DNA from: an uncultured Enterobacterales bacterium
GTDB taxonomy: Bacteria; Myxococcota_A; UBA796; JAFGLY01
Assembly: GCA_964454135.1 (NCBI GenBank)
Contig: CAYVQL010000001.1
Coordinates: forward strand, 84,977-148,976
Direction: 5' to 3'
Length of the DNA stretch: 64,000 bases
Below are positions 4,950 to 63,414 of this stretch, in pieces. Every line of letters starts with the position of its first letter. The first letter of the stretch is position 1. The notes below the pieces were generated by a model, which searched no databases, was not told the DNA's origin, and was given only the letters and a program-made list of their open reading frames with translations. The position numbers and the translations under genes were made by a program.

Positions 4950-6321
4950 GCACCTGGGGCTGCGCCTGTTCTTGACCCTGGGCCTGCTGCTGATCTGCTT
5001 CGAGCTGCTGGTTTTCACGCAGAACACGCGCGCCGCCGATCGCATCCGGGTCAAGATCGTCGAGGCCGACCTGCAGTGGATGCTGCGCAGTGGCGACCTG
5101 GAGCGCTGCGACGCGGATCCGGCGGCCTGGGAGGCGCCCCTGTCCGGGCTGGGGATGGTGTACACCCTGGACGAGAGCGGCCGGCCCCACAATCCGCAGG
5201 CGCCCCTGCAGCAGGCCTTTGCCAACGACGTGGAGCCGGGCCAGCTGGTCAAGCAGGGCGCCAAGGTGCACTGGCTGGGTTGGACCGGGGTCTACGCCCT
5301 GGCACGGCAGGCGGCCGAGGCGCCCTGCCGCAGCTTCCTGATCGTGCAGCGACACATGATGGGGGTGGACACGCACCTGTTCTGGTGGATCGCCTTGCCG
5401 CGCTTCGTGCTGGGGCTGGCCATCGTCTGCCTGACCTGGTGGTTCGTGGTCCGTCCCTTGCTGCAGCGCATCCACGTGCTGGCCGGGCGCACCTCCACCA
5501 TCGTGGAGGCCGATTTCGAGGGGCAGCTGCCCGTGGGTCGCGGCGACGAGATCGACCAGCTGGCCGTGGCCTTCAACCGGGCGGCGGCCGCGGCCCGCGA
5601 GCGCCTGGAGCGGCTGCGCAAGCAGGACAAGCTGACCCGCGAGGTGATGGCCAACATCGCCCACGACGTGCGCACGCCCCTGGCGGCCCTCAAGCTGGGC
5701 ACAGGGCGGCTGTTGGCGGATCAGCCCCAGTCCGAGGTGGGGCCCACGGTGCGCTCCGAGCTCAACTACCTGGACAGCCTGATCGCCAACCTGGGCACCC
5801 TGGTGCAGCTGGAGGGCACGACCCTGCCCCTGGTGCGCCAGAAGCTGGACGCTTGCGCCCTGGTGAATCGCTGCCTGGCGCGCTTCGAGATGGTGGCCGC
5901 GGGGCGCGGCGTGGAGATCAACGGCGCCACGCCCGACGATCCGCTGCACTTCGCCGGCGATCCCCTGGCTGTGGAGCAGGCCCTGGGCAACCTGGTGCAG
6001 AACGCCACCGACTTCGCCAGCGGCAACGTGGCCCTGGTCTGCTTCGAGGAGCAAGGGAGCGTGGTCTTCTCGGTGCAGGACGACGGGCCCGGCCTTGAGA
6101 TCGGCGAGATCCCGCGCCTGTCCGAGCGCAGCTACCGCGGCATCGCCAGCCACTCGCGCGGCCGCAAGGGCCTGGGACTGGGCCTGGCCATCGCCGACGA
6201 GGTGGCGCGACGCCACGGAGGCGAGCTGATCTTCGACTGCCCCGCCGAAGGGGGAACGCGCATCCGCCTGCGCTTTCCGCGCGGGCTCTCGCTACGGATG
6301 GACACCTACCACTGGGAGTAG
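4942..6321 (+). CDS. Sensor histidine kinase (two TM helices, HAMP, HisKA and HATPase_c domains).
   Basis: H-box ANIAHDVRTPL, N-box GNLVQNATDFA, G-boxes DDGPGL and GLGLGLAI. Translationally coupled to the response regulator. Confidence 0.9.
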   Translation: MLKHLGLRLFLTLGLLLICFELLVFTQNTRAADRIRVKIVEADLQWMLRSGDLERCDADPAAWEAPLSGLGMVYTLDESGRPHNPQAPLQQAFANDVEPGQLVKQGAKVHWLGWTGVYALARQAAEAPCRSFLIVQRHMMGVDTHLFWWIALPRFVLGLAIVCLTWWFVVRPLLQRIHVLAGRTSTIVEADFEGQLPVGRGDEIDQLAVAFNRAAAAARERLERLRKQDKLTREVMANIAHDVRTPLAALKLGTGRLLADQPQSEVGPTVRSELNYLDSLIANLGTLVQLEGTTLPLVRQKLDACALVNRCLARFEMVAAGRGVEINGATPDDPLHFAGDPLAVEQALGNLVQNATDFASGNVALVCFEEQGSVVFSVQDDGPGLEIGEIPRLSERSYRGIASHSRGRKGLGLGLAIADEVARRHGGELIFDCPAEGGTRIRLRFPRGLSLRMDTYHWE

Positions 6322-9711: not shown

Positions 9712-11351
9712 TGATGAGCGCCGAGCTGAACGAACGGAGTGCCACACCCACGGAAGCCCCCGAGCTGGTGGGGGCCCTGGGCGAAGGCCAGATCGTGGGT
9801 CGCTACGAAGTGATTCGGGTGCTGGGTCGGGGTGGCATGGCCACTGTCTACCTGGTGCGCCACCTGGCCCTGAGCACGCTGCACGCCCTCAAGGTGCTGG
9901 ACGTGAGCTCCCCGCAGGTGCGGGAGCGTCTGCTGCTGGAGGGTCGCGTGCAGGCGCGACTGCGTCACCCCAACCTGGTGTCGGTGACCGATGTGCTGGA
10001 CGTGCAAGGCGCGCCGGGCCTGCTGATGGAGTTCGTGGACGGTCCCGATCTCGAAGCCTGGATTCGCGGCACATTACCGGATCTGCAGACCGCCGCCCAG
10101 ATGTTCTGCGGCATCCTGTCGGCCATGGAGCAGGCCCACGCCCTGGGCTACGTCCACCGGGATCTCAAGCCAGGCAATGTGCTCTTGGTGCGGGATATCG
10201 GGCGTTGGACACCAAAGGTCACGGATTTTGGCATCGCCAAGGCCATCCATAGCGATACGCCGGGGCACAGCACCCAGGCCGGCTTTCCCATGGGCACGCC
10301 TTCGTATATGGCTCCCGAGCAGGTGAGCCGGGCTCAGGCCGTGGACGTGCGGGCCGACATCTTCTCGCTCGGCTGCATCCTGTACCAGCTGGTCACCCAC
10401 CAGGAGGCCTTCCCGGGCGACAGCGTGCTGGAGATCTTCAACGCGGCGGCCCAGGGGCGCTACCGGGATCCGCGGGAGCTGGTGCCCGACCTGCCCGAGG
10501 CCATGTTCCAGGGGCTGCGGGGCGCGCTGGAGCCCGATCTCGAGGCCCGCATCCCCGACTGTCATACGCTGCGTCTGGTGCTCTCGGGTCAGCTGCCATG
10601 GAGCGCAGAGACCACTTCTCCCCCCAACTTCCAGCTGCCAGCCTGCGCGCTGTCGCCCGTTCTGCTCGAGGAGGAGTCCACTGAACCTGCGCTGAGCGTT
10701 CCGCCCGTGCCCAGCGGGCTCTTCGAGGGCGCCGTGGCGGTTCCCCAGGCTGCGCCTGCGGACCAGGAGGGCACCCTGACAGTGGAGGCCTTCCAGGCCG
10801 CCGAGCGGCTCAACCGCGCTCGCGTGCGGCAGGCCGCCGTCTTCAGCGCCCTGGCCTCGGCGGCCCTGGTGGGCCTGGCCTGGATGGTCCTGGGGCGTCC
10901 CGACGCGGCTGTGATTCCGGAGGCCAGCGCGCCGGCAGCCGAGGTGCTCGTTGCGGAAGTGGCGGAGGTTGCACCCATAGTCGTGCAAGAGGAGGCCGCG
11001 ACCATTCCGGAGGAAGACGCAGCCCTGGCGGAGGAGCCGCCCGCTGCGGAGCTCGCTCCCGCGGTGTCGACGCCGCCCCCTGTGAAGGCCGAGGCGCAGC
11101 CTGCGCCAGCCGCCCGTGCGGCCGCCCGCCCCAGCACGGGCACGGTACGCGCCAGCGGGGATCACAGTGTCCTCTACCTGTTGGACAGCCAGGGGCAGCT
11201 CCACCAACCCGGTGCCCTGGCGCCCGGCAGCTACGACCTGGTGGCCGCCTTCCCCTCGGGGCGCAGCATCGAGCGCCCTGCCTTTTTGACGGTGGAGGCC
11301 GGGCACAGCTACAGCGTGCGCTGCAGCGCCCTGATGGAGAACTGCCGATGA
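9711..11351 (+). CDS. Hanks-type Ser/Thr protein kinase with one TM helix and a C-terminal extracytoplasmic domain.
   Basis: RVLGRGGMATVYLV, catalytic HRDLKPGNVLL, DFGIAK and APEQ motifs. A GGAGG RBS precedes the ATG at 9711-9714. TM segment AAVFSALASAALVGLAWMVLG. Confidence 0.9.
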   Translation: MMSAELNERSATPTEAPELVGALGEGQIVGRYEVIRVLGRGGMATVYLVRHLALSTLHALKVLDVSSPQVRERLLLEGRVQARLRHPNLVSVTDVLDVQGAPGLLMEFVDGPDLEAWIRGTLPDLQTAAQMFCGILSAMEQAHALGYVHRDLKPGNVLLVRDIGRWTPKVTDFGIAKAIHSDTPGHSTQAGFPMGTPSYMAPEQVSRAQAVDVRADIFSLGCILYQLVTHQEAFPGDSVLEIFNAAAQGRYRDPRELVPDLPEAMFQGLRGALEPDLEARIPDCHTLRLVLSGQLPWSAETTSPPNFQLPACALSPVLLEEESTEPALSVPPVPSGLFEGAVAVPQAAPADQEGTLTVEAFQAAERLNRARVRQAAVFSALASAALVGLAWMVLGRPDAAVIPEASAPAAEVLVAEVAEVAPIVVQEEAATIPEEDAALAEEPPAAELAPAVSTPPPVKAEAQPAPAARAAARPSTGTVRASGDHSVLYLLDSQGQLHQPGALAPGSYDLVAAFPSGRSIERPAFLTVEAGHSYSVRCSALMENCR

Positions 11352-53374: not shown

Positions 53375-53610
53375 GTTCCTGGCCTGGACGACGAGCGAAC
53401 GAAGGAGAAGGTCGAAGTATGGCAGGCCCGAGAGGCGGAGTCGAGGTGCGCGGAGTGCCCTGAGAGTGCTGTGACCTGGAGGCCTCGGCGGCTGCCGCCT
53501 GTGGTCCGAGACGCGCTTCGACCGCAAGACCCTTGAGTTCATGCTGCTGTTGCGGACCGATGGCAACCAATAAGCCCCTGGCATCCCGGGGGATGCCAGG
53601 GGCCATCCGC

Positions 53611-54699
53611 TCAACCTTCACCCAGCGAGATCTTCCCCAGCAGCTCAGCCGGGCTGGCCACCAGGGTGATCTGACCGACGTTCTCGGCCATCTCCTTCAT
53701 GGCCTCCAGCTCCTTGAGGCGCATCAGGACCGGGCTGGACTGCAGCATGCGGGCCGTGTTCGCCAGGGAGCGCGTGGCCGCGGTCTCTTCGCGGCGGGCG
53801 ATCACGTTGGCGGCGGCGCGCTTCTCAGCCTCGATCACCTGGTTCAGGATGAGCTTCATCTCGCCGGGCAGCACCACGTCCTTCAGGTCCAGGGCCAGCA
53901 CCTCCACGCCCCAGCCCTGGGCGCGCTGGGCCAGCTCCTGGCTCATGGCGCCGGCCGCCTCCACGCGGCGCTCCAGCAGCTCGTCGACCTTGGCGCCGGC
54001 CACGGTGCGGCGGGCGATCAGCTGGGCCTCGGAGTACAGGGCGTCGCGCAGGTCGGCCACCGCGTGGGTGCTGGCCACGGGATCGGTGACGCGGAACTTG
54101 ACGATCAGGTTGACGCGCAGGCTGACCTTGTCGCCGGTCATCACCTCCTGGCCGGTGATCTGCAGCTCCTGCTCGCGCAGGTCCGCCAGCTCGAAGCGCA
54201 GCTGGCGGTCCAGGGCGTTCAGGGCGTGGACGCCCTCTTCCAGCTGGTCGGCCAGCTGGCCGTCCACGTAGACCAGGCAGCGCTCGTGGGGCTTGACGCG
54301 CAGCACCTGCAGGTGGGAGCGCGGCACCAGGGGCTGGAAGGCCGCCGGGATCTCGGAGCGCAGGGCGCCGGTGTCGTGCAGCTGAACCTGCACCTGACGG
54401 CGCAGCTGCCAGATCAGGTAGCGACCCGGCAGCAGGCAGTGGGCCGGCAGGCCGTCGCAGCGCAGCAGGGCCAGCTGCTCGGCGGTCACGTCCAGCAGCT
54501 CGGCGGCGCCTTCCGGCAGGATGGCCTGCAGCTCAGGGGTCCAGGGCGCGTAGCCCAGGTCCAGGTCGAAGTGCTCCACCTGGACGCGAGGGCCGGCGAA
54601 CCACAGGCGGTGCAGGCCGGGCTCGAGCCAGCGGATCAGCTGGCCGTTCTTCTTGACGACTGCGCGCTGGTGCGGGGCGACGATGACTTCGCGGTACAT
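53611..54699 (-). CDS. SPFH/band-7 (stomatin/prohibitin-like) domain protein with a roughly 140-aa N-terminal extension and no obvious TM helix.
   Basis: SPFH core LRVNLIVKFRV...ALDLKDVVLPGEMKLILNQVIEAEKRAAANVIARREETAATR. AGGAG RBS ahead of the ATG at 54699. The upstream part of the 946-aa ORF is rejected. Confidence 0.8.
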   Translation of the reverse strand: MYREVIVAPHQRAVVKKNGQLIRWLEPGLHRLWFAGPRVQVEHFDLDLGYAPWTPELQAILPEGAAELLDVTAEQLALLRCDGLPAHCLLPGRYLIWQLRRQVQVQLHDTGALRSEIPAAFQPLVPRSHLQVLRVKPHERCLVYVDGQLADQLEEGVHALNALDRQLRFELADLREQELQITGQEVMTGDKVSLRVNLIVKFRVTDPVASTHAVADLRDALYSEAQLIARRTVAGAKVDELLERRVEAAGAMSQELAQRAQGWGVEVLALDLKDVVLPGEMKLILNQVIEAEKRAAANVIARREETAATRSLANTARMLQSSPVLMRLKELEAMKEMAENVGQITLVASPAELLGKISLGEG

Positions 54700-55168
54700 G
54701 GGGAGCTCCTGATGAAGATGGGCCCGGGGGCCGAGGTCCGAAGGAGGCGCGCTGCGGGCCGGAGCCTGCTGCGCTGCCCTCCGGGTCGGCGGGGCGGGGC
54801 GGCCGGCGTGGAGGCCCGGTCCGAGGACGGGGACCCCGGCGGGCGCGGGGCCGTGCGGCGATGGGCATCGCCGCGGTGGCCTGCTCCGCCGCGGGCCGGC
54901 TGCTGTCACAGATCCGGGCCCGTCGGGCGTCTGTTGGGGTTTCCTTAGGGGGGAAGGTTCGGGTTTCAGCCGAATGAGCATCCACGCTCTCTCCAAAAGA
55001 GATCCAGGAGTCGAACCTGGGATTGTGCATGGGCCGAGACGCGGGACCCTTCCTTCGACGAGCCGAGCTTTGGCGAAGCAGCCGGTACCCGGTGACCCGA
55101 CCGGAGCTCCGACGCTGGCGCGGGAGTCCCTGGGGTCGCGTTCGAAAGAGCCGCTGGGTGACCATGCG
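54700..55168 (-). ncRNA. Candidate structured leader or ncRNA transcribed from the sigma-54 promoter, containing a tRNA T-arm-like element (possible Y-RNA/YrlA-like module).
   Basis: Minus-strand sequence tCCCAGGTTCGACTCCTGGatctctt (plus coordinates 55005..55021) matches the tRNA T-stem-loop consensus GGTTCGANTCC within a 5-bp stem. There is no convincing coding frame between the promoter and the SPFH start. Confidence 0.2.
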
Positions 55169-55180
55169 CCCCCCGTAGAA

Positions 55181-55196
55181 GCAAGCCGCGTGCCAG
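55181..55196 (-). promoter_or_regulatory. Sigma-54 (RpoN) -24/-12 promoter TGGCACGcggcTTGCT, oriented toward the SPFH gene and divergent from rtcR.
   Basis: Reverse complement of 55181..55196 reads TGGCACGCGGCTTGCT. GG and GC are separated by exactly 10 nt, as in the TGGCACG-N4-TTGCW consensus. Confidence 0.6.
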
Positions 55197-55324
55197 GGGC
55201 GCGAATAGACGGGAATTCTGTGGTGGAACCGCCGAAAGAGTTGGGAGAAGGTGCTGAAGGCTCGTTCTGTGAAGCTGGCGGGGCTTCCGCTCTCCCTGCC
55301 TCTTTCGCTTCCTGGTGATATATC

Positions 55325-55342
55325 TGTATCGTAAACGATACA
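55325..55342. promoter_or_regulatory. 18-bp AT-rich palindrome TGTATCGtaaaCGATACA immediately upstream of the rtcR start; candidate operator or activator-binding site.
   Basis: Perfect 7-bp arms with a 4-bp spacer. It sits in an unusually AT-rich 40-bp patch (GATATATC also present) 15 nt before the rtcR ATG. Confidence 0.35.
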
Positions 55343-55356
55343 TCTGGATAGTGTCC

Positions 55357-57006
55357 ATGTCCGTACGCAAGCCCCTGGTCGTCTTCGGCATGCTGGGCAC
55401 GCGCCTGGATCAGGGGCGACGGGCGCGCCGCTGGACCAAGTGGCGTCCCACCGTCTGCGCCGTGCAGCAGCCCGAGCTGCCCGTGGCGCGCTTCGAGCTG
55501 CTCTTTCCGCCCGACCACCAGGGCCTGGCCAAGGGCGTGGCCGACGACATGCTGCAGCTGCGCCCCCATATGGAGCTGCAGCTGCATCCCTTCCCGCTGC
55601 GGGATCCCTGGGACTTCGAGGAGGTCTTCGGCGCGCTGCTGGACTTCGCCCAGGCCACGGACTTCCAGCCCGAGCGCGAGGACTACCTGCTGCACATCAC
55701 CACGGGGACCCACGTCTTTCAGATCTGCTGCTTCCTGCTGGCCGAGTCGGGGCATTTCCCGGCCCGCTTGCTGCAGACCGAGCCCCTGCGCCCCCCACGC
55801 GGGCCCGATGGCAAGCGCCAACCCGATCCCGGCCGCGCGCGCGTGATCGACCTGGATCTTTCGCGCTACGACGCCATCGCCGCCCGCTTCTCCGAGCAGC
55901 GGCGCGACGCCCTGTCCTTCCTCAAGGCCGGCATCGACACCCAGAACAAGGCCTTCAACGCGCTCATCGAGCGCATCGAGCGCGTGGCGCGCGCCTCGCG
56001 CGATCCCATCCTGCTGATGGGCCCCACCGGGGCGGGCAAGACGCGCCTGGCCAGCCGCATCGCCGAGCTGAAGCTGCGCCTGCAGCAAGGGGCCAGCGGC
56101 CAGTTCGTGCAGGTCAACTGCGCCACGCTGCGGGGCGACGCCGCCATGTCGGCCCTGTTCGGCCATGTGCGCGGCGCCTTCACGGGCGCGCTGCAGGAGC
56201 GAGCCGGCCTGCTGCGCAGCGCCGACGGCGGCGTGCTCTTCCTGGACGAGATCGCCGAGCTGGGGCCGGACGAGCAGGCCATGCTGCTGCGGGCCATCGA
56301 GAGCGGGCGCTTCACGCCCCTGGGCAGCGACCGCGAGGTGCGCAGCCGTTTTCAGCTGATCGCTGGCACCAACCGCGACTTGCAGCGCGCCGTGGCCGAG
56401 GGGCGCTTCCGCGACGACCTGCTGGCGCGGCTGGACCTGTGGACCTTTCACCTGCCCGGCCTGCGGCAGCGGCCCGAGGACATCCCCCCAAACCTGGACT
56501 ACGAGCTGAACCGCATCACGCGCGAGACGGGCCGGCGCGTGACCATGAACGCCGAGGCCCGGGCGCGCTTTCTGGAATTCGCCTGCTCCGCCCAGGCCAG
56601 CTGGAGCCGCAACTTCCGCGACCTGAACGGCGCCATGCGCCGCATGGCCACCCTGGCCGAGGGCGGACGCATCGACCAGGGACAGGTGGAGGAGGAGATG
56701 GCGCGGCTGCTGCGCGCTTGGACGGTGCCCGGCGCCAGCGCGCAGCCGGATGTCCTGCGCCGGCTGCTGGGCGCGGAGCGCCTGGCGCAGCTTGACCGCG
56801 TCGAGCAGGTGCAGCTGGCCGAGGTGGTGGCCGTCTGCGGCCGCAGCGCGAGCCTGGCGGCCGCCGGACGAGCCCTCTTCGCCGCCTCGCGCCAGCAGCG
56901 CCGCAGCGTCAATGACGGCGATCGCCTGCGCAAGTACCTGGCGCGCTACGGGCTGAGCTGGGCTGGGCTCAATCCGGAGGCTCCCTCAGCGCCGACGTCA
57001 CCGTGA
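55357..57006 (+). CDS. rtcR: RtcR-family sigma-54-dependent transcriptional activator (N-terminal CARF-like sensor domain, AAA+ sigma-54 interaction domain, C-terminal HTH).
   Basis: N-terminus VVFGMLGTRLDQGRRARRWTKWRPTV (RtcR/CARF-type). Walker A GPTGAGKT. Sigma-54 contact motif GAFTGA. Walker B LFLDEI. C-terminal DRLRKYLARYGLSW. Confidence 0.85.
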   Translation: MSVRKPLVVFGMLGTRLDQGRRARRWTKWRPTVCAVQQPELPVARFELLFPPDHQGLAKGVADDMLQLRPHMELQLHPFPLRDPWDFEEVFGALLDFAQATDFQPEREDYLLHITTGTHVFQICCFLLAESGHFPARLLQTEPLRPPRGPDGKRQPDPGRARVIDLDLSRYDAIAARFSEQRRDALSFLKAGIDTQNKAFNALIERIERVARASRDPILLMGPTGAGKTRLASRIAELKLRLQQGASGQFVQVNCATLRGDAAMSALFGHVRGAFTGALQERAGLLRSADGGVLFLDEIAELGPDEQAMLLRAIESGRFTPLGSDREVRSRFQLIAGTNRDLQRAVAEGRFRDDLLARLDLWTFHLPGLRQRPEDIPPNLDYELNRITRETGRRVTMNAEARARFLEFACSAQASWSRNFRDLNGAMRRMATLAEGGRIDQGQVEEEMARLLRAWTVPGASAQPDVLRRLLGAERLAQLDRVEQVQLAEVVAVCGRSASLAAAGRALFAASRQQRRSVNDGDRLRKYLARYGLSWAGLNPEAPSAPTSP

Positions 57007-57403
57007 AGCTGCCGCTGCCCGTGGCCACCAGCCGGCCACGCTCGTTCCGCACCTCCATCTCGGCCGTGCTCAGGCGCCTGCCCAGGTTCACCAGCCTGCC
57101 GCGCGCCACCAGCTCCTGCTTTGCGACCGGGCGGTGCAGGCGCACGTGGAACTCCACGGTGGCGATCCAGGTCTCGAAGTAGGGTGCCACGGTGAACCAG
57201 CCGGCGTTGTCCAGCATGGTGGCGATGGCGCCGCCGTGGGTCTGGCCCAGGGCGTGGTCCAGGGCCGGGTTGTAGGGCATGCGGAAGACGGCCTGCGCGC
57301 CCTCGTAGGAGAGGCGCATGCCGAAGTGGCGGCCGATGGGGGCGTGTTGGTTGAAGAGCTCCAGCAGCTCTGCCCGGCGCGCGGCGTGATCCCTCGCAGT
57401 CAT
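56969..57403 (-). CDS. PaaI-family hotdog-fold thioesterase.
   Basis: GQTHGGAIATMLDNAGW motif. AGGAGAG RBS. Confidence 0.75.
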   Translation of the reverse strand: MTARDHAARRAELLELFNQHAPIGRHFGMRLSYEGAQAVFRMPYNPALDHALGQTHGGAIATMLDNAGWFTVAPYFETWIATVEFHVRLHRPVAKQELVARGRLVNLGRRLSTAEMEVRNERGRLVATGSGSFTVTSALREPPD

Positions 57404-57427: not shown

Positions 57428-58288
57428 CTACCAGGCCGCGCTCAGGCCCATCATGGGGGTGCCGTCCGTCGAGACCGCGCTGCTGACGACCAGGCGCTCG
57501 CTGCGGTGCAGCTCGGGCACCAGGATGCCCACGCCGGCCCCCAGCAGGCCGCCCACCATGACGTCCGTGGGGAAGTGCTTGTGGGCTCGCACCCGCAGGG
57601 CGCCGGTCCAGACGGTGATGCCCGCCGCTCCCAGGTAGGGCAGCGCCTCCAGCTGCCAGGCCCAGTCCTGGGTGATGCCCAGCGTATGGGCCAGGGCGAA
57701 GGACCAGGCGCCGGCGGTGGAGGTGTGGCCCGAGGGGAAGGAGAGCTGGGCTTCGCAGTCCACGGGTTGGTCGTTGGCGACGGCTTCGTCGTAGGCGGCG
57801 CGCCACTCCTCACTGTAGGCGAAGGGCCGCGGGCGGCGCACGGCGTGCTTGACGAGGTGGGTGATGTTCTGGCTGATGGTGATGGCCTCCAGGCCCACCA
57901 CGGCGTAGGTGCCGGAGCGGGCCAGCCGGGCCCGGCCGCTGTCCGCAGTCCGCAGCAGGCCGTAGGCGCCCAGCACCAGGGGCAGGGCGTAGCTGGGGTA
58001 GATGCCCGTGATGTCCGAGAGCAGATCCGGCCCTTCGCCGTCGATCTCGGACAGCCCGGCGTAGCGCGCGTCCAGCCCCAGCTCGGGCTCTCCCGGGGGG
58101 TTCTGCTCCACCCAGGGCGACTCGCCGCCGAACATGGTGGCGAAAGTGTAGGCGCCGGAAAACAGCGCCACCGGGGCGTCCGTCCAAGGATTCAGGCGCA
58201 GGTCGGGCTCGGGCTCGCTCGCGGGCTCGGCCGCCATGGCCAGGGCAGGACAGAGCAGGAGGGCGAGTGAAAGAAGGAGAAGAGGCAT
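57428..58288 (-). CDS. Secreted PAP2-superfamily phosphatase.
   Basis: Signal peptide MPLLLLSLALLLCPALAMA. PAP2 motifs KHAVRRPRP, PSGH, SRVRAHKHFPTD. Confidence 0.8.
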   Translation of the reverse strand: MPLLLLSLALLLCPALAMAAEPASEPEPDLRLNPWTDAPVALFSGAYTFATMFGGESPWVEQNPPGEPELGLDARYAGLSEIDGEGPDLLSDITGIYPSYALPLVLGAYGLLRTADSGRARLARSGTYAVVGLEAITISQNITHLVKHAVRRPRPFAYSEEWRAAYDEAVANDQPVDCEAQLSFPSGHTSTAGAWSFALAHTLGITQDWAWQLEALPYLGAAGITVWTGALRVRAHKHFPTDVMVGGLLGAGVGILVPELHRSERLVVSSAVSTDGTPMMGLSAAW

Positions 58289-58429
58289 GGCACACCTTGG
58301 AGGGGCGTCGAGCCGCGCCGCCATGGACACCGGCGGCTCGAGCGACACCAACGTAGCGCGGCCGTCCAGCCGAATCCCGGGGTCTGCTACACTCGTTCTC
58401 CCCTCCTGGCCCATCCCGAGGTCAACGCC

Positions 58430-59878
58430 ATGCTCGCCCTGTCCGCCCTGCTCGCGCTCTCCCTCGTCCCCGACGCCGCGGCCCTGGAGGACGAGTCGCT
58501 GCGGGCCCGCAGCTCTTTCGGCTTGTTCCGCGATCCCTACGACTATTTCGCCCAATCCGCCTGGCTGGTGCGCCAGCCCGGGCGTCACCTGTACACCGTG
58601 CTGGCCGAGCCCGGCGAGCAGGGCTGGCTGGGCGGCGGCTACCTGGGCCCGGTGGGCTTCGGCGTGCTGGCGACCCGCGTGGGCGGCGCGCTGAGCAGCC
58701 AGCGCGTGATCGACAGCCAGGTGGCGCCCAAGCGCGAGTCCTTCACCGAGAGCTATCTGGAGCACCGCCAGCTGCAGGCCTCCCTGGGGTGGGGCATCCC
58801 GGTCAACGAGCGCCTGGCCGTGGGCGTCGGCCTGGACGCCGCCTTCCTGCGGGAGCGCTACTCCCTGGCCGCCGATGCCGAGTCCGGCGTGAGCCTGCTG
58901 GGCGACACCCACGAGAGCCTGGAGGAGGGCGTGCAGGTGGCGCTTGATGGGGGCTCGGCCACGTTGGACATGCGGCGCATCGGCGGGTCGGTGGGCCTGG
59001 CCCTGGGCAGCCCCGAGGAAGGGGGCGTGGAGATCGGCGTCACGCTGGCGCAGCGCAGCGCGGTCCCCACCGCAGAAGCCGGGGTCGCGGACCAGGACGA
59101 GGAGAGCGGCGAGTTCACGAACTCCTACGCCTACGAGGGCTACTACCCGGATGCGGGCCTACAGGTGAACCATGTCATCTGGCTGCCCGGTCTGCGGGCG
59201 GACGGCTTGGTCCCGGTGGGCGAGCGGGCGGGCTTGAGGCTGATGGCCGAAGCCCAGGGAGGCAAGGGCCGACCGGCGCTCTACTCGGCCACCGAGGCCT
59301 TCCTGCAGGACGGCGCCTGGCTGGTGCGCGAGGAGCGCATCGAGAACCCCTGGCTGGGCGTGCTGGACATGAACCTCCTCGTGGCGCTGCAGCTGCAGCG
59401 CGAGGCGCTGGCCTTGCGCGTAGGCCTGCAGGGGCGGGCCGATCTGACCACCTGGTGGCTGGACAGGATCGTCTACGAAGACGAGGAGCTGCAGCAGAAC
59501 GACAGCTACCAACAGCTGCAGGCCGACGATCGCTGGAGCATGAGCCTGCCCCTGGTACTGGAGAGCGCGCTGACCGAGCGCTGGACCCTGCGCTGCGGCG
59601 CCCGCTTCACCTTTCTCTACGACTACTGGGAGGATCGTGACGGCAGCGCCGAGGGCGACGTCATCGTCGAGCAGAGCGCCACCAGCTCCTACGCCGACCT
59701 GGCCCTGGGCCTGCGCTTCCAGCCCCACGAGGCGGTCACCCTGGAGACGGCCTTTGCCGGGCGCGGATCGGCCTGCGATCCGGACGCCGAGAACCTGCAG
59801 CTGGGAGAGATCTGCCAGGGCCAAGCCCTGCAGCTGGATCTCTCCAGCGTCTCCATCAGCGCCGTCTTCCACCTCTGA
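58430..59878 (+). CDS. Secreted protein, probably an outer-membrane beta-barrel.
   Basis: Signal peptide. Alternating amphipathic beta-strand pattern. C-terminal ...SISAVFHL. Confidence 0.5.
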   Translation: MLALSALLALSLVPDAAALEDESLRARSSFGLFRDPYDYFAQSAWLVRQPGRHLYTVLAEPGEQGWLGGGYLGPVGFGVLATRVGGALSSQRVIDSQVAPKRESFTESYLEHRQLQASLGWGIPVNERLAVGVGLDAAFLRERYSLAADAESGVSLLGDTHESLEEGVQVALDGGSATLDMRRIGGSVGLALGSPEEGGVEIGVTLAQRSAVPTAEAGVADQDEESGEFTNSYAYEGYYPDAGLQVNHVIWLPGLRADGLVPVGERAGLRLMAEAQGGKGRPALYSATEAFLQDGAWLVREERIENPWLGVLDMNLLVALQLQREALALRVGLQGRADLTTWWLDRIVYEDEELQQNDSYQQLQADDRWSMSLPLVLESALTERWTLRCGARFTFLYDYWEDRDGSAEGDVIVEQSATSSYADLALGLRFQPHEAVTLETAFAGRGSACDPDAENLQLGEICQGQALQLDLSSVSISAVFHL

Positions 59879-59898
59879 TCCTCCCCGGGGAGCGGATC

Positions 59899-62800
59899 AT
59901 GCCTGCCCTCGCCGCCTTCATCGCGTCCAGCCTGGCCTTTCTGGCCGGCAGCGCCCACGCCCAGGACGCCGACCCCTTCGTCTGTGGCCAGGTCAGCGGC
60001 ATGCAGACGGAGCTGGATGAGGGCTTCGAGTACCGCATCTCGGCCTTCCTCTGGTACGAGCCGGCCGGCGCCTCCACCCGCGTGGAGCTGGCCACCCTGG
60101 ACGCCGAGCAGGGCCTGGCTCTCAACCCCACGGCCTGGGGCGAGCTGCTGGACGGGGATTTCGGCCTGCAAGGCGACCAGGGCCTGGACTACGACCCCGA
60201 GCATGAGGGCCCGCTCTTCGTGGCCACGCTGCCGGCCCCGGCCCACGACCTGCGGCTGGAGACCGATCGCGGCGAGCTGACCGTCCGCCTGCCCGACACC
60301 CGCGACCTGCGCTTCGGCGCGGCCTTCGCGGTGGCCGACGACGGCGCCACCTACTGGGCGGAGCAGGACCACGACGGCCTGTCCGTCGAGGACCGCCTGG
60401 ACTGGGACGACGCCCTGGCGGACGAGCACCTGGCGCGCGCCGCCCATGAGGCAGCCGGCGACCCGGGCGCCCCCGACGACGCTCAGCCCCTGGAGCTGGC
60501 GGCCGCCAAGCGCTCCACCTGGGCCTACGCCGCCGATCCCGCGGGCGCCTCTCTGCGCCTGGGCAAGCCCGACGGCAGCTCCATCGAGCCCGAGGAGGTG
60601 CCCGCGCTCTTCGGCACGTACTTCGACGTGCTGGACGAGGGCGTGTCCGTGGGCTCATCCCGCTGGCAGGGCGCCACGGGGCGCGCCTTCCCCTTGTCTG
60701 CGCAGTTCCAGGATCTGTCGGACTGCAGCGGCTGGCCCGAGGTGGAGGTCAAGCCCGGCGTGCTGGCGGTGGATCCGCGCTACGGGCGCTTCGCCTTCTC
60801 CCAGGGGCGGCCCGAGCAGGATCCCGAGCTGGCAGGTCACTTCCACCAGCACTGGAACGCCCCCAACTCGCTGCAGGTCTACGGCGATCGCGCCTGGTTC
60901 ACCCTCGGCGAGAGCGACGCCTCTTTCGTGATGGTCGACATCTCCGACCCCGCGGCGCCCCAGCTGGCGGGCATGGCCGACGCCGGCTGGGCCTACGGAT
61001 CCGTGCTGGCGGAGGGCTGCGCCCATGTCTGGGGCAAGAGCGGCATCGTCAGCTTCGACATCAGCGACGAGTCCGCCCCGCGCGCCACCCAGTGGCTGGA
61101 GCACGACTGGGGCGTGCCCGGCGCCGTCTGGCAGGACGGCGAGCTGCTGGTGGCCAGCTACGCCGAGGGCCTGGTGGTCTTCGACATCACCAACCCCGCC
61201 CATCCGCGGGTGCTGGACGATGCGCGCCTGCGCATCAACGACGAGCTGCAGGCCTGGAGCAACACGACCTGTTGGCCCGTCTCCACCAACCTGGCCATCG
61301 CGCCCGTCTCCGAGCCCGAGAAGGAGCACAGCCACGAGGCGCTGCGCCTGTACGACATCAGCGATCCCTTCAGTCCCCAGCTGCTCTCCACCATCCACTA
61401 CGCCGACAAAGAGGTGGAGCTGGGGCCCGTCTGGGTGGATCGCACCGAGAACGCCATGTTCCTGGGCACGGTGGGCGACGGGCTCAAGCTGGTGGATCTG
61501 AGAGATCCTACCGAGCCCCTGGTGGAGACGCTGCGGCGCGAGTACGACGTGGACAGCGAGGACGAGATCCAGTGGGTCGACCGCAGCACGGGCCTGGGCG
61601 AGGTGGGCGGCGTGCTCTACGAGTCGGGCAGCTACGGCTGGCTGGATGCGAACCGCGTGCCCCCCTGGGACGGGCGCAGCATCTCCTACCTGCGGGCTTG
61701 GGACATCAGCGATCCCCTCAACCCGGAGCTCTTGCAGGTCAGCACCGACGCCTCCACGGTGGGCTGGCTGGGCTCGCTGGCCGAGGCCGATGAATTCGCC
61801 GTCGCCGCGGAGTCGGGCTACGGCCTGCGCCTGCTGGATCCGGCCGCCGAGGATCCCTTCGACTACATGGGCGGCTACCTGGCGGCGGGCCAGACCACCG
61901 ACGTGGAGGTGGCTGGGGACATCGCCCACATCAGCGGCTACCTGGGGGGCGGCATCACCGCCGTGGACATCTCGGATCCCAGCCAGCCCGTGCAGGTGGG
62001 CTACGCCCACCACGGGCTCGACACCTACGGCATCGCCCTGAAGAGCACGGGGGAGGGCAGCTGGGTCTACGCCTCGGGCAAGTCCAGGTTGCCCTGGTTC
62101 GAGGGCGAGAGGTGGCGCTACACCGAGGTCACGGTCCACGACTTCGCCGATCCCGGCGCGCCGGTGGAGCTGGGTCAGGGCACGGGTGACTTCCACCTCG
62201 TGGCGGACAGCTCCGGCGATCTGCTGTGGGCCGACTGCAACCTGTGGGACATCTCGGATCCGGCGGATCCCATCCAGCTCAATGAGAAATGTGTCCTGGG
62301 AGGCCAGGCTGCGGCCTTCATGGACGGCGTGCTGGTCTATGGCGGCGGTGGCACCGAGCTGTCTGGCGGCTACCTGGACGAGGGCAAGGCCATCCGGGCC
62401 TTGGTGATCTACGACGTGGGCATCCCGGCGGCCTCGCTGCTGCTCTCGCTGCAGGAGGTGCCCGACTCCGTGGGCGGCGTGCTCTCCACCAACGTCGCCC
62501 TCCGCGGCGAGAAGGCCTACTTCGTCAACGGCGTGGGCGTGGTCGAAGCGGACGTGAGCGATCCCCGTGAGCCGGTCCGGACCGACTACCTGGTCATCGA
62601 CTCCTGCCCCGAGGGCGACCCCGAGTCCCTGGACGTGGCGGGCGATCATCTCTACGTGCAGTGCCAGCATTGGACCGTGCTGGTCTACGACATCAGCCAG
62701 GGCCTGGCCGAGGCCGTGGAGCTGGGCGCCCTGGAGAGCCATGTCGGGGAGATCACCAAGCTGAGCGGCTACCAGCTGCTCTCGGCCACCGCCAACGGAC

Positions 62801-63414
62801 TCTATCTCTACGACGTGCCCCGCTCACCGGACGAGCCCGTGGGACCCGTGACCGTCAGCTACTACGAGGCCGACGCCCCGGCCGGCGATCCGGCCGAGTG
62901 CGGCTCCCAGGGCGTGACGGGCTGTAGTTGCGCAGCCGGGCCGCGCGCGCCAAGGGCCTTGGGGCTGGCGCTGCTGGGCCTGGCAGCCCTGGCCGTCGGA
63001 CGGCGCGGGCGCGGCGGGGTGGCGCTGCTGAGCCTGGCGCTCCTGGCGCTGCCCGGCACGGCCTGGGCCAATAGCTTCGCGGGGCTGGGGGTCTTCATCG
63101 CCGGGGTGGGGGTGGCCGCGCCAGCGGCCGTGCTGCTGCTGCTGCTCTCCATCGTCTCCGCGGTCTTCCGCCTGCGCTCCCGGCCCAGCCGCGGGCGCGT
63201 CATCTACGGCAAGGTCACCATGGTGGCCGCGCCCGTCCTGGCGCTGGCCTTTCCCGTGACCGCCATGGTGCTGGAGCTGATGGACGGGCGCCTGGACGGA
63301 GCGGAGCCGGTCCTCTCCTTGCTGGCCGTGATCGGCCTGCCCCTGTTCTTGCTGGGGGCGGCCTGCTTTGGGCTGGCCCAGTCGGTGGTGCGGCGTTGCG
63401 GGGTGCAAGCGTGA
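59899..63414 (+). CDS. Secreted LVIVD-repeat beta-propeller protein carrying a MYXO-CTERM-type motif that is followed in-frame by a roughly 130-aa hydrophobic extension.
   Basis: Signal peptide. Ten or more DISDPxxPxxL LVIVD-type repeats. GCSCAAGPRAPRALGLALLGLAALAVGRRGR at aa 1008-1040. The frame then continues through the VALLSLALLALPGTAWA-like segment plus three TM helices to the stop at 63414. Confidence 0.75.
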   Translation: MPALAAFIASSLAFLAGSAHAQDADPFVCGQVSGMQTELDEGFEYRISAFLWYEPAGASTRVELATLDAEQGLALNPTAWGELLDGDFGLQGDQGLDYDPEHEGPLFVATLPAPAHDLRLETDRGELTVRLPDTRDLRFGAAFAVADDGATYWAEQDHDGLSVEDRLDWDDALADEHLARAAHEAAGDPGAPDDAQPLELAAAKRSTWAYAADPAGASLRLGKPDGSSIEPEEVPALFGTYFDVLDEGVSVGSSRWQGATGRAFPLSAQFQDLSDCSGWPEVEVKPGVLAVDPRYGRFAFSQGRPEQDPELAGHFHQHWNAPNSLQVYGDRAWFTLGESDASFVMVDISDPAAPQLAGMADAGWAYGSVLAEGCAHVWGKSGIVSFDISDESAPRATQWLEHDWGVPGAVWQDGELLVASYAEGLVVFDITNPAHPRVLDDARLRINDELQAWSNTTCWPVSTNLAIAPVSEPEKEHSHEALRLYDISDPFSPQLLSTIHYADKEVELGPVWVDRTENAMFLGTVGDGLKLVDLRDPTEPLVETLRREYDVDSEDEIQWVDRSTGLGEVGGVLYESGSYGWLDANRVPPWDGRSISYLRAWDISDPLNPELLQVSTDASTVGWLGSLAEADEFAVAAESGYGLRLLDPAAEDPFDYMGGYLAAGQTTDVEVAGDIAHISGYLGGGITAVDISDPSQPVQVGYAHHGLDTYGIALKSTGEGSWVYASGKSRLPWFEGERWRYTEVTVHDFADPGAPVELGQGTGDFHLVADSSGDLLWADCNLWDISDPADPIQLNEKCVLGGQAAAFMDGVLVYGGGGTELSGGYLDEGKAIRALVIYDVGIPAASLLLSLQEVPDSVGGVLSTNVALRGEKAYFVNGVGVVEADVSDPREPVRTDYLVIDSCPEGDPESLDVAGDHLYVQCQHWTVLVYDISQGLAEAVELGALESHVGEITKLSGYQLLSATANGLYLYDVPRSPDEPVGPVTVSYYEADAPAGDPAECGSQGVTGCSCAAGPRAPRALGLALLGLAALAVGRRGRGGVALLSLALLALPGTAWANSFAGLGVFIAGVGVAAPAAVLLLLLSIVSAVFRLRSRPSRGRVIYGKVTMVAAPVLALAFPVTAMVLELMDGRLDGAEPVLSLLAVIGLPLFLLGAACFGLAQSVVRRCGVQA

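Follow-up and report, generated by a model that had tools for sequence, protein, structure and literature searches.

The window analysed here, a stretch of 64,000 nucleotides (nt) from an uncultured bacterium of the lineage Myxococcota_A (GenBank assembly GCA_964454135.1, contig CAYVQL010000001.1, positions 84,977 to 148,976), carries a gene for the RNA-repair regulator RtcR that stands divergent from a sigma-54 promoter. Downstream of this promoter lies a long leader followed by a gene for an SPFH/Band-7 protein, and within the leader we identified a conserved, covarying, circularly permuted mimic of a tRNA (Table 1). The repair enzymes usually controlled by RtcR are not encoded nearby: tblastn searches of the 64 kb at E ≤ 1 with E. 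coli, Holophagae-type and Planctomycete-type queries found no RtcA, RtcB or TROVE/Ro60, and an earlier note on this DNA was right that rtcB and rtcA are absent.

Table 1. Features of the rtcR-SPFH locus, in coordinates of the window.
Feature	Position	Strand	Basis
rtcR (CARF, sigma-54 AAA+ with GAFTGA and C-terminal DNA-binding activator)	55357..57006	+	NCBIfam, Pfam and PADLOC profiles
Candidate RtcR upstream activating site, perfect palindrome GTATCG-TTTA-CGATAC (GTATCGTTTACGATAC)	55326..55341		Read from sequence
Sigma-54 promoter TGGCACG-CGGC-TTGCT (TGGCACGCGGCTTGCT)	55180..55195	-	Only exact match in 64 kb
Predicted 5' domain of the transcript, ~146 nt	55024..55169	-	Blocks common to L073 and L130
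Conserved small hairpin motif GGGTCCCGCGTCTCGGCCC	55049..55031	-	Shared by most close relatives
Possible long-range helix GCATGG : CCATGC	~55157..55152 : ~55033..55028	-	Positionally consistent in several relatives
Circularly permuted tRNA-like core	54955..55023	-	Covariance model R1, covariation, comparison with relatives
T-arm CCAGG-TTCGACT-CCTGG	55020..55004	-	Read from sequence
Closed acceptor hairpin TCTCTT-ttg-GAGAGA	55002..54988	-	Comparison with L073 and L130
Short D-arm GCG-tgga-TGC	54987..54978	-	Comparison with L073 and L130
Anticodon-like hairpin TTCGG-ctgaaac-CCGAA	54974..54958	-	R1, comparison with relatives
GC-rich spacer, RNA core to SPFH start	54700..54954	-	Read from sequence
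SPFH/Band-7 ("slipin family") protein, 362 aa	53611..54699	-	Pfam Band_7
Terminator-like 14-bp GC-rich hairpin with T-rich tail	53573..53604	-	7 nt after the SPFH stop

The regulator gene encodes a genuine RtcR, as the earlier note had proposed. Its 549-residue product matches the NCBIfam RtcR equivalog NF038308 from end to end (residues 5-538 of 549 on profile positions 2-527 of 530) at 745 bits against a cutoff of 650, and the PADLOC model RtcR--CARF_AAA_HTH at 776 bits. Pfam profiles locate an N-terminal CARF domain (PF06956 RtcR, residues 6-192, E 2.5e-68) and a Sigma54_activat domain (PF00158, E 7.8e-47), and the translation shows GHVRGAFTGA, the Walker A motif GPTGAGKT and the Walker B motif LFLDEI. 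The AAA+ domain of RtcR remodels sigma-54 RNA polymerase. It shares 56% of its residues with E. coli RtcR and 71% with the RtcR of each of the two closest relatives of the locus, L073 and L130.

The divergent promoter fits the sigma-54 consensus at 12 of 12 positions, with GG at −24, GC at −12 and the correct spacing between them, and is the one exact match to TGGCACG-N4-TTGCW in the window, where 0.01 are expected from shuffled sequence. The earlier note had described this promoter with an offset of a single base (55181..55196 for 55180..55195). Going by the promoter position, transcription is predicted to start near 55169, 470 nt before the SPFH start codon at 54699. In 12 relatives, and likewise in L130-132, a TGGCACG-N4-yTGCw element precedes the T-arm by 105-175 nt, also at loci with no RtcR within 6 kb; this conservation, extending as it does to loci without the regulator nearby, suggests that the RNA and SPFH unit is sigma-54-dependent throughout the clade. 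The promoter of rtcBA in E. coli is built in the same way. Approximately 130-145 bp upstream of the −24 element, inside an AT-rich island by the rtcR start codon, lies a perfect palindrome that is a candidate RtcR binding site. TATCG/CGATA-rich AT islands occur at the same place in L130, in L073 and in the E. coli rtcR-rtcB intergenic region.

The earlier note had held that the leader of roughly 470 nt contains no credible open reading frame (ORF). This is upheld by comparison with relatives, in which the two ORFs listed in the leader are not conserved (L130, for example, lacks an ATG), but the leader is not featureless: its core, 55023..54955, is a conserved, covarying, circularly permuted tRNA mimic. 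A covariance model, R1, was built from eight relatives with the window left out and the structure imposed, and its sole real match in the 64 kb is the element in the leader (26.6 bits, E ~2e-6). R1 also recovers homologous elements in other close loci; in L130 it finds only the SPFH-proximal element. In the 29 SPFH-proximal R1 matches, 93.9% of cells are paired, as compared to 61% in shuffled alignments and no more than 44% with the structure slid along the alignment; two-sided changes number 169, where shuffles give 50. A second round, with 41 elements aligned, gave 94.1% paired cells and 260 two-sided changes against 74 in shuffles; both alignments are fitted to the model, and in both the paired cells fall below 49% when the structure is slid. 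The closed acceptor stem carries two-sided changes in all 7 pairs of the 41-element alignment, with 95% of its cells paired. A further model, R2, scores the window at 41 bits, which is not independent evidence because the window is part of its training alignment.

The acceptor and D arms of the window element are placed by direct comparison with L073 and L130, relative to which compensatory changes are found in the acceptor, D and anticodon stems. The acceptor stem reads TCTCTT/GAGAGA in the window, CCTCA/TGAGG in L073 and CCTCAT/ATGAGG in L130, and the anticodon stem reads TTCGG/CCGAA, CACGG/CCGTG and TCGA/TCGA, respectively. Rfam contributed nothing relevant, either over the whole window at gathering thresholds or over 54500..55500 at E ≤ 10, and ARAGORN called no tRNA in the window.

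We examined how regularly such an RNA accompanies the SPFH gene in 80 genomic and 43 metagenomic loci with SPFH homologues, which are 30-62% identical to the window protein and come, according to their record titles, from at least seven phyla (Myxococcota, Acidobacteriota, Planctomycetota, Verrucomicrobiota, Bdellovibrionota, Gemmatimonadota and Riflebacteria). Of the 108 loci with enough upstream sequence, 100 have the T-arm motif GGTTCRANTCC within 1.3 kb 5' of the SPFH gene and on its strand, and none (0/108) has it there on the opposite strand; within 1.3 kb downstream it is present in 13 of 97. By class of RNA, 43 loci have a permuted element, 42 an ordinary tRNA and 18 a T-arm only. SPFH is the sole protein family common to all 124 loci. 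The window is tied to the repair system by RtcR and has no RtcB, which adjoins in 16 of the 124 loci; sigma-54 activators occur in 11 of the 124. Other candidates for a conserved protein partner were rejected, the remainder consisting of shadow ORFs, Ser/Thr kinases at inconsistent positions, RtcB, sigma-54 activators and HNH proteins (7 array loci).

The RNAs divide by SPFH clade. A distant SPFH clade (~33-41% identity, mostly Planctomycetota and Verrucomicrobiota) has an ordinary, ARAGORN-callable tRNA ~415 nt upstream, with varied anticodons, and this tRNA is often the last gene of an array of 10-30 tRNAs. In the clade of the window (for the most part ≥43% identical, though some members are more distant; Myxococcota and Holophagae) ARAGORN calls nothing, and the order of elements is T-arm, closed acceptor hairpin, 2-nt linker, D-arm with the loop GG kept, and an anticodon-like hairpin with a 7-nt loop. 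Some Holophagae have a GNRA-type tetraloop in place of the anticodon-like loop.

Within the available sequence, the arrangement of rtcR, divergent promoter, RNA and SPFH gene without rtcBA is found in three lineages: the window together with the identical-context contigs L126, L127 and L129; L073; and L130-132, whose SPFH proteins are 63% identical to that of the window. Neither rtcB nor rtcA was found in the available sequence of L073 and L130-132, and the synteny of rtcR with SPFH that the earlier note wished to see in relatives is conserved in these loci. The gene after SPFH in L130 is convergent, so SPFH is the sole protein gene of the L130 operon. In other relatives the RNA and SPFH pair directly follows rtcB (Holophagae loci) or follows rtcR-rtcB-rtcA (L017, L020 and L070). 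Minicystis rosea DSM 24000 (L002), a cultivable relative, likewise carries the promoter, the RNA and the SPFH gene.

The SPFH gene is the first protein gene downstream of the promoter, as stated in the earlier note, and its product matches Pfam Band_7 (PF01145) at 98 bits against a cutoff of 23.6. That note had pictured a membrane-scaffold-type protein, a description that did not survive analysis: there is no hydrophobic or transmembrane segment (maximum 19-residue Kyte-Doolittle mean 1.23), and the protein is predicted to be soluble and to lack a membrane anchor. An AlphaFold2 (AF2) model (pLDDT 88) shows three beta modules of ~45-60 residues (2-52, 66-109 and 130-173), the SPFH core and a long helix (279-340). 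An SPFH alpha/beta core leading into a long helix is shared with stomatin/slipin, HflK/C, QmcA and the major vault protein (MVP), among which stomatin, HflK/C and MVP assemble into rings or cages. Stomatin is the best PDB match by both sequence and fold (Foldseek E 5e-15), with its sequence aligning from query residue 134 onward only; unlike stomatin-type proteins, the window protein has no membrane hairpin, and its N-terminal 134 residues form two extra beta modules in the corresponding place. A repeat motif in the family consensus suggests that the N-terminal region consists of two additional copies of the beta module with which SPFH itself begins, so that this module appears to be triplicated. 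The full-length model also matches MVP in long alignments (Foldseek E 4e-11). A vault-like reading was rejected, as the N-terminal 134 residues modelled alone (pLDDT 93) gave no significant PDB match and no match to MVP, leaving homology to MVP repeats unsupported. There are 1384 homologues at E ≤ 1e-20, which their sources name slipin or HflC-like.

The unit likely ends at a terminator-like hairpin 7 nt after the SPFH stop (Table 1), judging from its sequence. The next gene, with a start at ~53374, 237 nt after the SPFH stop and beyond the hairpin, encodes a protein with a Pfam Beta_helix match and an LLAC lipobox. The earlier note had suggested that this beta-helix lipoprotein may belong to the transcript, but it has no counterpart in the locus of any relative, and its position behind the hairpin together with this absence places it outside the unit. 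No PADLOC defence-system model matches either this protein or the SPFH protein.

An association of these components has been proposed before. Burroughs and Aravind (NAR 2016), in the account given of that study by a later preprint (bioRxiv 10.1101/312249), predicted a Band-7 gene next to a tRNA-like RNA (b7a-tRNA) and RtcB. The same account describes the b7a-tRNA as strongly resembling authentic tRNA and as experimentally unvalidated as of 2018, and mentions that YrlA occasionally adjoins Band-7 genes. Two other systems lend independent experimental support to this functional neighbourhood: an SPFH gene lies within the rtc locus of P. aeruginosa (PMC13086221), and the TrcR translational-stress regulon of Anabaena includes a slipin gene that is induced together with rtcB and a tRNA array (PMC10272220). 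The module is therefore not undescribed, as the earlier note had supposed; going by that account of the 2016 study, the association of Band-7, tRNA-like RNA and Rtc was already predicted, and the window is one member. As far as the account allows comparison, the window agrees with the b7a-tRNA module in having SPFH directly 3' of a tRNA-like RNA on the same strand, in its link to Rtc (through RtcR and the sigma-54 promoter) and in having homologous SPFH genes that elsewhere adjoin rtcB or rtcA. It differs in the absence of rtcB and rtcA from 64 kb and in an RNA that is permuted, not in standard cloverleaf order; the authentic-tRNA form described for b7a-tRNA is the form that we find in the distant Planctomycetota/Verrucomicrobiota clade. 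Particular to the window are the permuted RNA with a local anticodon-like arm, the cis arrangement without rtcBA (three lineages) and the soluble SPFH protein with its triplicated N-terminal module. These variants may already be included in the 2016 study.

The closest analogue of the RNA itself is YrlA, known from the Salmonella rsr-yrlBA-rtcBA locus and from other bacteria (PMC4201824, 10.1101/312249), and the arm order agrees with that described from the YrlA crystal structure. Both RNAs have the order T stem-loop, closed acceptor-like hairpin and D stem-loop, a conserved T loop, the D-loop GG, control by RtcR and sigma-54, and no free CCA end. In YrlA, the 5' and 3' ends of the RNA pair to make the equivalent of the anticodon stem, which leads on to a Ro60-binding module, whereas the window RNA has a local anticodon-like hairpin after the D-arm, a 146-nt 5' domain before the T-arm and no Ro60 gene in the window. 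We looked for the Ro-binding motif of YrlA, GNCGAAN0-1G, and rejected it as a feature of this RNA: there is a single GTCGAAGG in the window, and the motif is of GTCGGAG type or absent in L073 and L130. As for the regulatory half of the locus, the window shares with E. coli rtcR/rtcBA an orthologous activator, a divergent TGGCACG-N4-TTGC promoter and an AT-rich TATCG/CGATA region by the rtcR start, but its promoter drives an RNA and SPFH instead of a ligase and a cyclase.

Relatives of the window SPFH protein lie inside tRNA arrays of 10-30 genes with rtcB and HNH, as in the long tRNA arrays (L-arrays) of cyanobacteria and other phyla, which respond to translational stress together with rtcB (PMC8421152, PMC10272220); the window differs in having a single permuted mimic, no array, and RtcR instead of TrcR control. 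SPFH homologues inside such arrays were observed in Holophagae/Geothrix (L003, L004, L012, L015 and L083) and in Planctomycetota/Verrucomicrobiota (L033, L036, L037, L048, L052, L053, L057, L059, L074 and L080). The Holophagae order is tRNA array, rtcB, permuted RNA, SPFH, three to four more tRNAs and an HNH endonuclease gene, and the rtcB and HNH neighbours resemble the surroundings of the stress-induced L-arrays of cyanobacteria (PMC8421152).

We consider it likely that the locus is a minimal Band-7 and tRNA-like RNA accessory module of RNA-repair systems, with a YrlA-like permuted RNA and with rtcBA not in cis. Such a module would be an RtcR-controlled sigma-54 operon with two products, a structured non-coding RNA containing the permuted tRNA mimic and a soluble SPFH/Band-7 protein. 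Damaged or nicked tRNAs bearing 2',3'-cyclic phosphate would activate the CARF domain, as is known from RtcR of Salmonella, in which the activators are tRNA halves and nicked tRNAs with such ends (PMC7790460, PMC10159003), and of E. coli (PMC9650030). RtcR acting at the AT-rich palindrome would then open the sigma-54 promoter, with transcription beginning near 55169. By analogy with Ro60-YrlA, and in keeping with their co-occurrence, the tRNA mimic and an oligomeric SPFH protein would form a ribonucleoprotein (RNP) that acts in the response to tRNA or translation damage. This RNP might assist an RNA ligase encoded elsewhere, as its scaffold or cofactor, or might occupy tRNA-targeting nucleases as a decoy or sink.

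Several observations count against this interpretation. Activation of E. coli RtcR requires RtcA/RtcB (PMC9650030) and neither is encoded within the 64 kb, so the input here may differ or depend on unlinked genes. The confident part of the R1 alignment to the window element (high posterior probability) is limited to the T and anticodon arms, the acceptor arm (6 bp with a 3-nt loop) and D arm (3 bp) of the window are short, and single-sequence folding of the leader is no better than that of shuffles (z −1.45 and +0.49). It is co-occurrence that suggests binding of the RNA by the SPFH protein, and the transcript's start and the 3' extent of the RNA are predicted from the DNA; the RNA may or may not be cut away from the SPFH mRNA. 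Finally, one contig (L125, ENA scaffold_1587; 9780..10000) has an identical SPFH gene and the same downstream genes without rtcR, the promoter or the tRNA-like RNA. In their place upstream are a DHOR gene and two other Band_7 genes, and the junction falls in the GC-rich spacer ~220 nt before the ATG. L125 could be a chimeric assembly or a real rearrangement in which SPFH exists without the RNA and rtcR. Another of these contigs, L128, begins 187 nt before the SPFH gene.

The circuit envisaged in the earlier note, in which a CARF sensor was rewired to a membrane-scaffold SPFH protein, with or without the lipoprotein, through a functionless or merely regulatory leader to give an undescribed membrane-stress module, now seems very improbable. 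RtcR, the promoter and SPFH are real, rtcBA is absent, and the closest solved relatives of the SPFH core (stomatin, HflK/C and QmcA) are membrane proteins. However, this SPFH protein has no hydrophobic anchor, and no NfeD is found among the genes called on the identical-context contigs L125-L129, its neighbours being rtcR and the beta-helix lipoprotein gene. The leader of this supposed circuit holds a conserved tRNA-like RNA, its lipoprotein stands behind a hairpin and is missing from relatives, and the same SPFH family elsewhere adjoins rtcB, tRNAs and tRNA arrays, in an association that had already been described. Equally hard to credit is that the element is a decaying remnant of tandem tRNAs, a functionless pseudogene whose match to R1 reflects tRNA ancestry only. 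R1 does score tandem-tRNA junctions in arrays, a class of false positives known from YrlA searches and a hint at an origin from a tRNA dimer; in L007 ARAGORN can force a tRNA-Arg over the 5' part, and the small conserved upstream hairpin could be a relic anticodon arm. The covariation of the closed acceptor hairpin (7/7 pairs two-sided, 95% of cells paired) argues against decay, as do the position and strand of the element relative to SPFH and the sigma-54 promoter, which are kept across phyla, and the absence downstream of a second T-arm that would complete a second tRNA.

A role for the element as a cis leader controlling SPFH, by processing, by Rho attenuation at the C-rich tract that follows it or by binding a tRNA-recognising factor or RtcB that settles between read-through or translation of the mRNA and neither, and not as a stable partner RNA, we regard as unlikely. 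The element is on the SPFH transcript, 255 nt 5' of the start codon, the C-rich tract follows it in the window, L073 and L130, the closed acceptor stem offers no site for release by RNase P (by the reasoning applied to YrlA), and no intrinsic terminator separates RNA and ORF. On the other hand, the distant clade has ordinary tRNAs or arrays at the same position, which are trans-acting products with many anticodons; GNRA-type tetraloops can stand in for the anticodon-like loop, yet the T loop and D-loop GG of the tRNA elbow are kept, as expected for a mimic recognised by a protein; and YrlA, the closest analogue, is a stable protein-bound RNA. Cis control and a partner RNA are compatible and not exclusive. 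Going beyond the likely accessory module, the locus might specify a self-sufficient RNP that needs no ligase in cis, in which a soluble SPFH ring or cage loads the permuted mimic (or, in other phyla, array tRNAs) and provides a nuclease decoy, a means of sequestration or a platform for tRNA repair; this we advance tentatively, as a possibility that we find doubtful. If it were true, a ligase-free SPFH RNP would be the bacterial equivalent of vaults and similar SPFH assemblies that carry RNA, and the permuted RNA, which keeps its anticodon-like arm whole and has its ends where the variable arm would be, would represent a class of mimic distinct from YrlA and b7a-tRNA.

The Band-7/tRNA-like arm of RNA repair has, by the preprint's account, existed from 2016 onward as a computational prediction only. 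Its simplest natural version is found in the window, L073 and L130, with one RtcR, one sigma-54 promoter, one mimic, one soluble SPFH protein and no enzymes, and this simple makeup makes binding of the mimic by SPFH, and the role of such a particle under tRNA damage, directly testable. The survey ties the SPFH family to tRNAs over at least seven phyla, some of these tRNAs lying in large arrays with rtcB and HNH, and so joins Rtc RNA repair and stress-induced tRNA arrays, whose literatures have mostly been kept apart.

The rest of the leader is conserved in part. Its predicted 5' domain shares the blocks CTTCTACGGGG.G.GCATGG, GTCGGAGC and GTCCCGCG..TCGGCCC with L073 and L130, and a GTCC(C/T)G...TCGG hairpin motif is present in most close relatives. 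Pairing of GCATGG with CCATGC suggests the possibility of a long-range helix between the 5' end of the transcript and the bases before the T-arm, closing the 5' domain; the duplex energies of this helix are no better than those of shuffles. The spacer has a C-rich tract at its start and AGGAG 9 nt before the ATG. In relatives it is of similar length (230-380 nt) with poorly kept sequence, and the only terminator-like site between RNA and ORF is the T-arm itself. The C-rich, G-poor tract (54930..54957, minus strand) directly follows the core in the window, L073 and L130, leading in L073 into a poly-C/poly-G stretch and an assembly gap, and could be a Rho-utilisation site, a processing site or a linker.

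Some loci depart from the common pattern. L017, L020 and L070 (~5370..5610) contain an ARAGORN-callable tRNA with a second T-arm ~75 nt later; the anticodons differ, one being the "stop" TTA, and R1 scores the junction of tRNA and T-arm at 42-45 bits. This form may be an intermediate between tandem tRNA and permuted mimic. In L029 and L072 (Pseudobacteriovorax and Oligoflexus) the order is rtcB (minus strand), rtcR (plus) and SPFH (plus), and the T-arm motif was not found upstream of SPFH; possibly these two are an exception to the pairing of RNA and SPFH, or their RNA is too divergent for the motif. A longer SPFH subfamily of ~480-495 aa, with ~120 aa extra (L006, L013, L014, L096 and L097; proteins P0003-P0014), shows further N-terminal duplication in the form of overlapping tblastn segments, and in these loci the tRNA-like element precedes the aligned start by 830-1140 nt. 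L130 (1174..2790) and also L131 carry a Ro60/TROVE and vWA gene two genes beyond rtcR, and the genome of this lineage may thus hold both the Ro60 and the SPFH arms of RtcR-linked RNP systems.

The genes beyond rtcR have no apparent relation to the module. The region from 57428 to 63414 and beyond encodes a PAP2 phosphatase, an unannotated 482-aa protein and a 1171-aa LVIVD-repeat protein, and an identical contig adds an RHS/YD-repeat fragment, likewise without apparent relation to the finding. Nearest to the regulator, and convergent with it, is a 4HBT thioesterase gene (56969..57403, minus strand), a gene call made on the identical contigs L126 and L127, which overlaps the 3' end of rtcR by ~38 nt.

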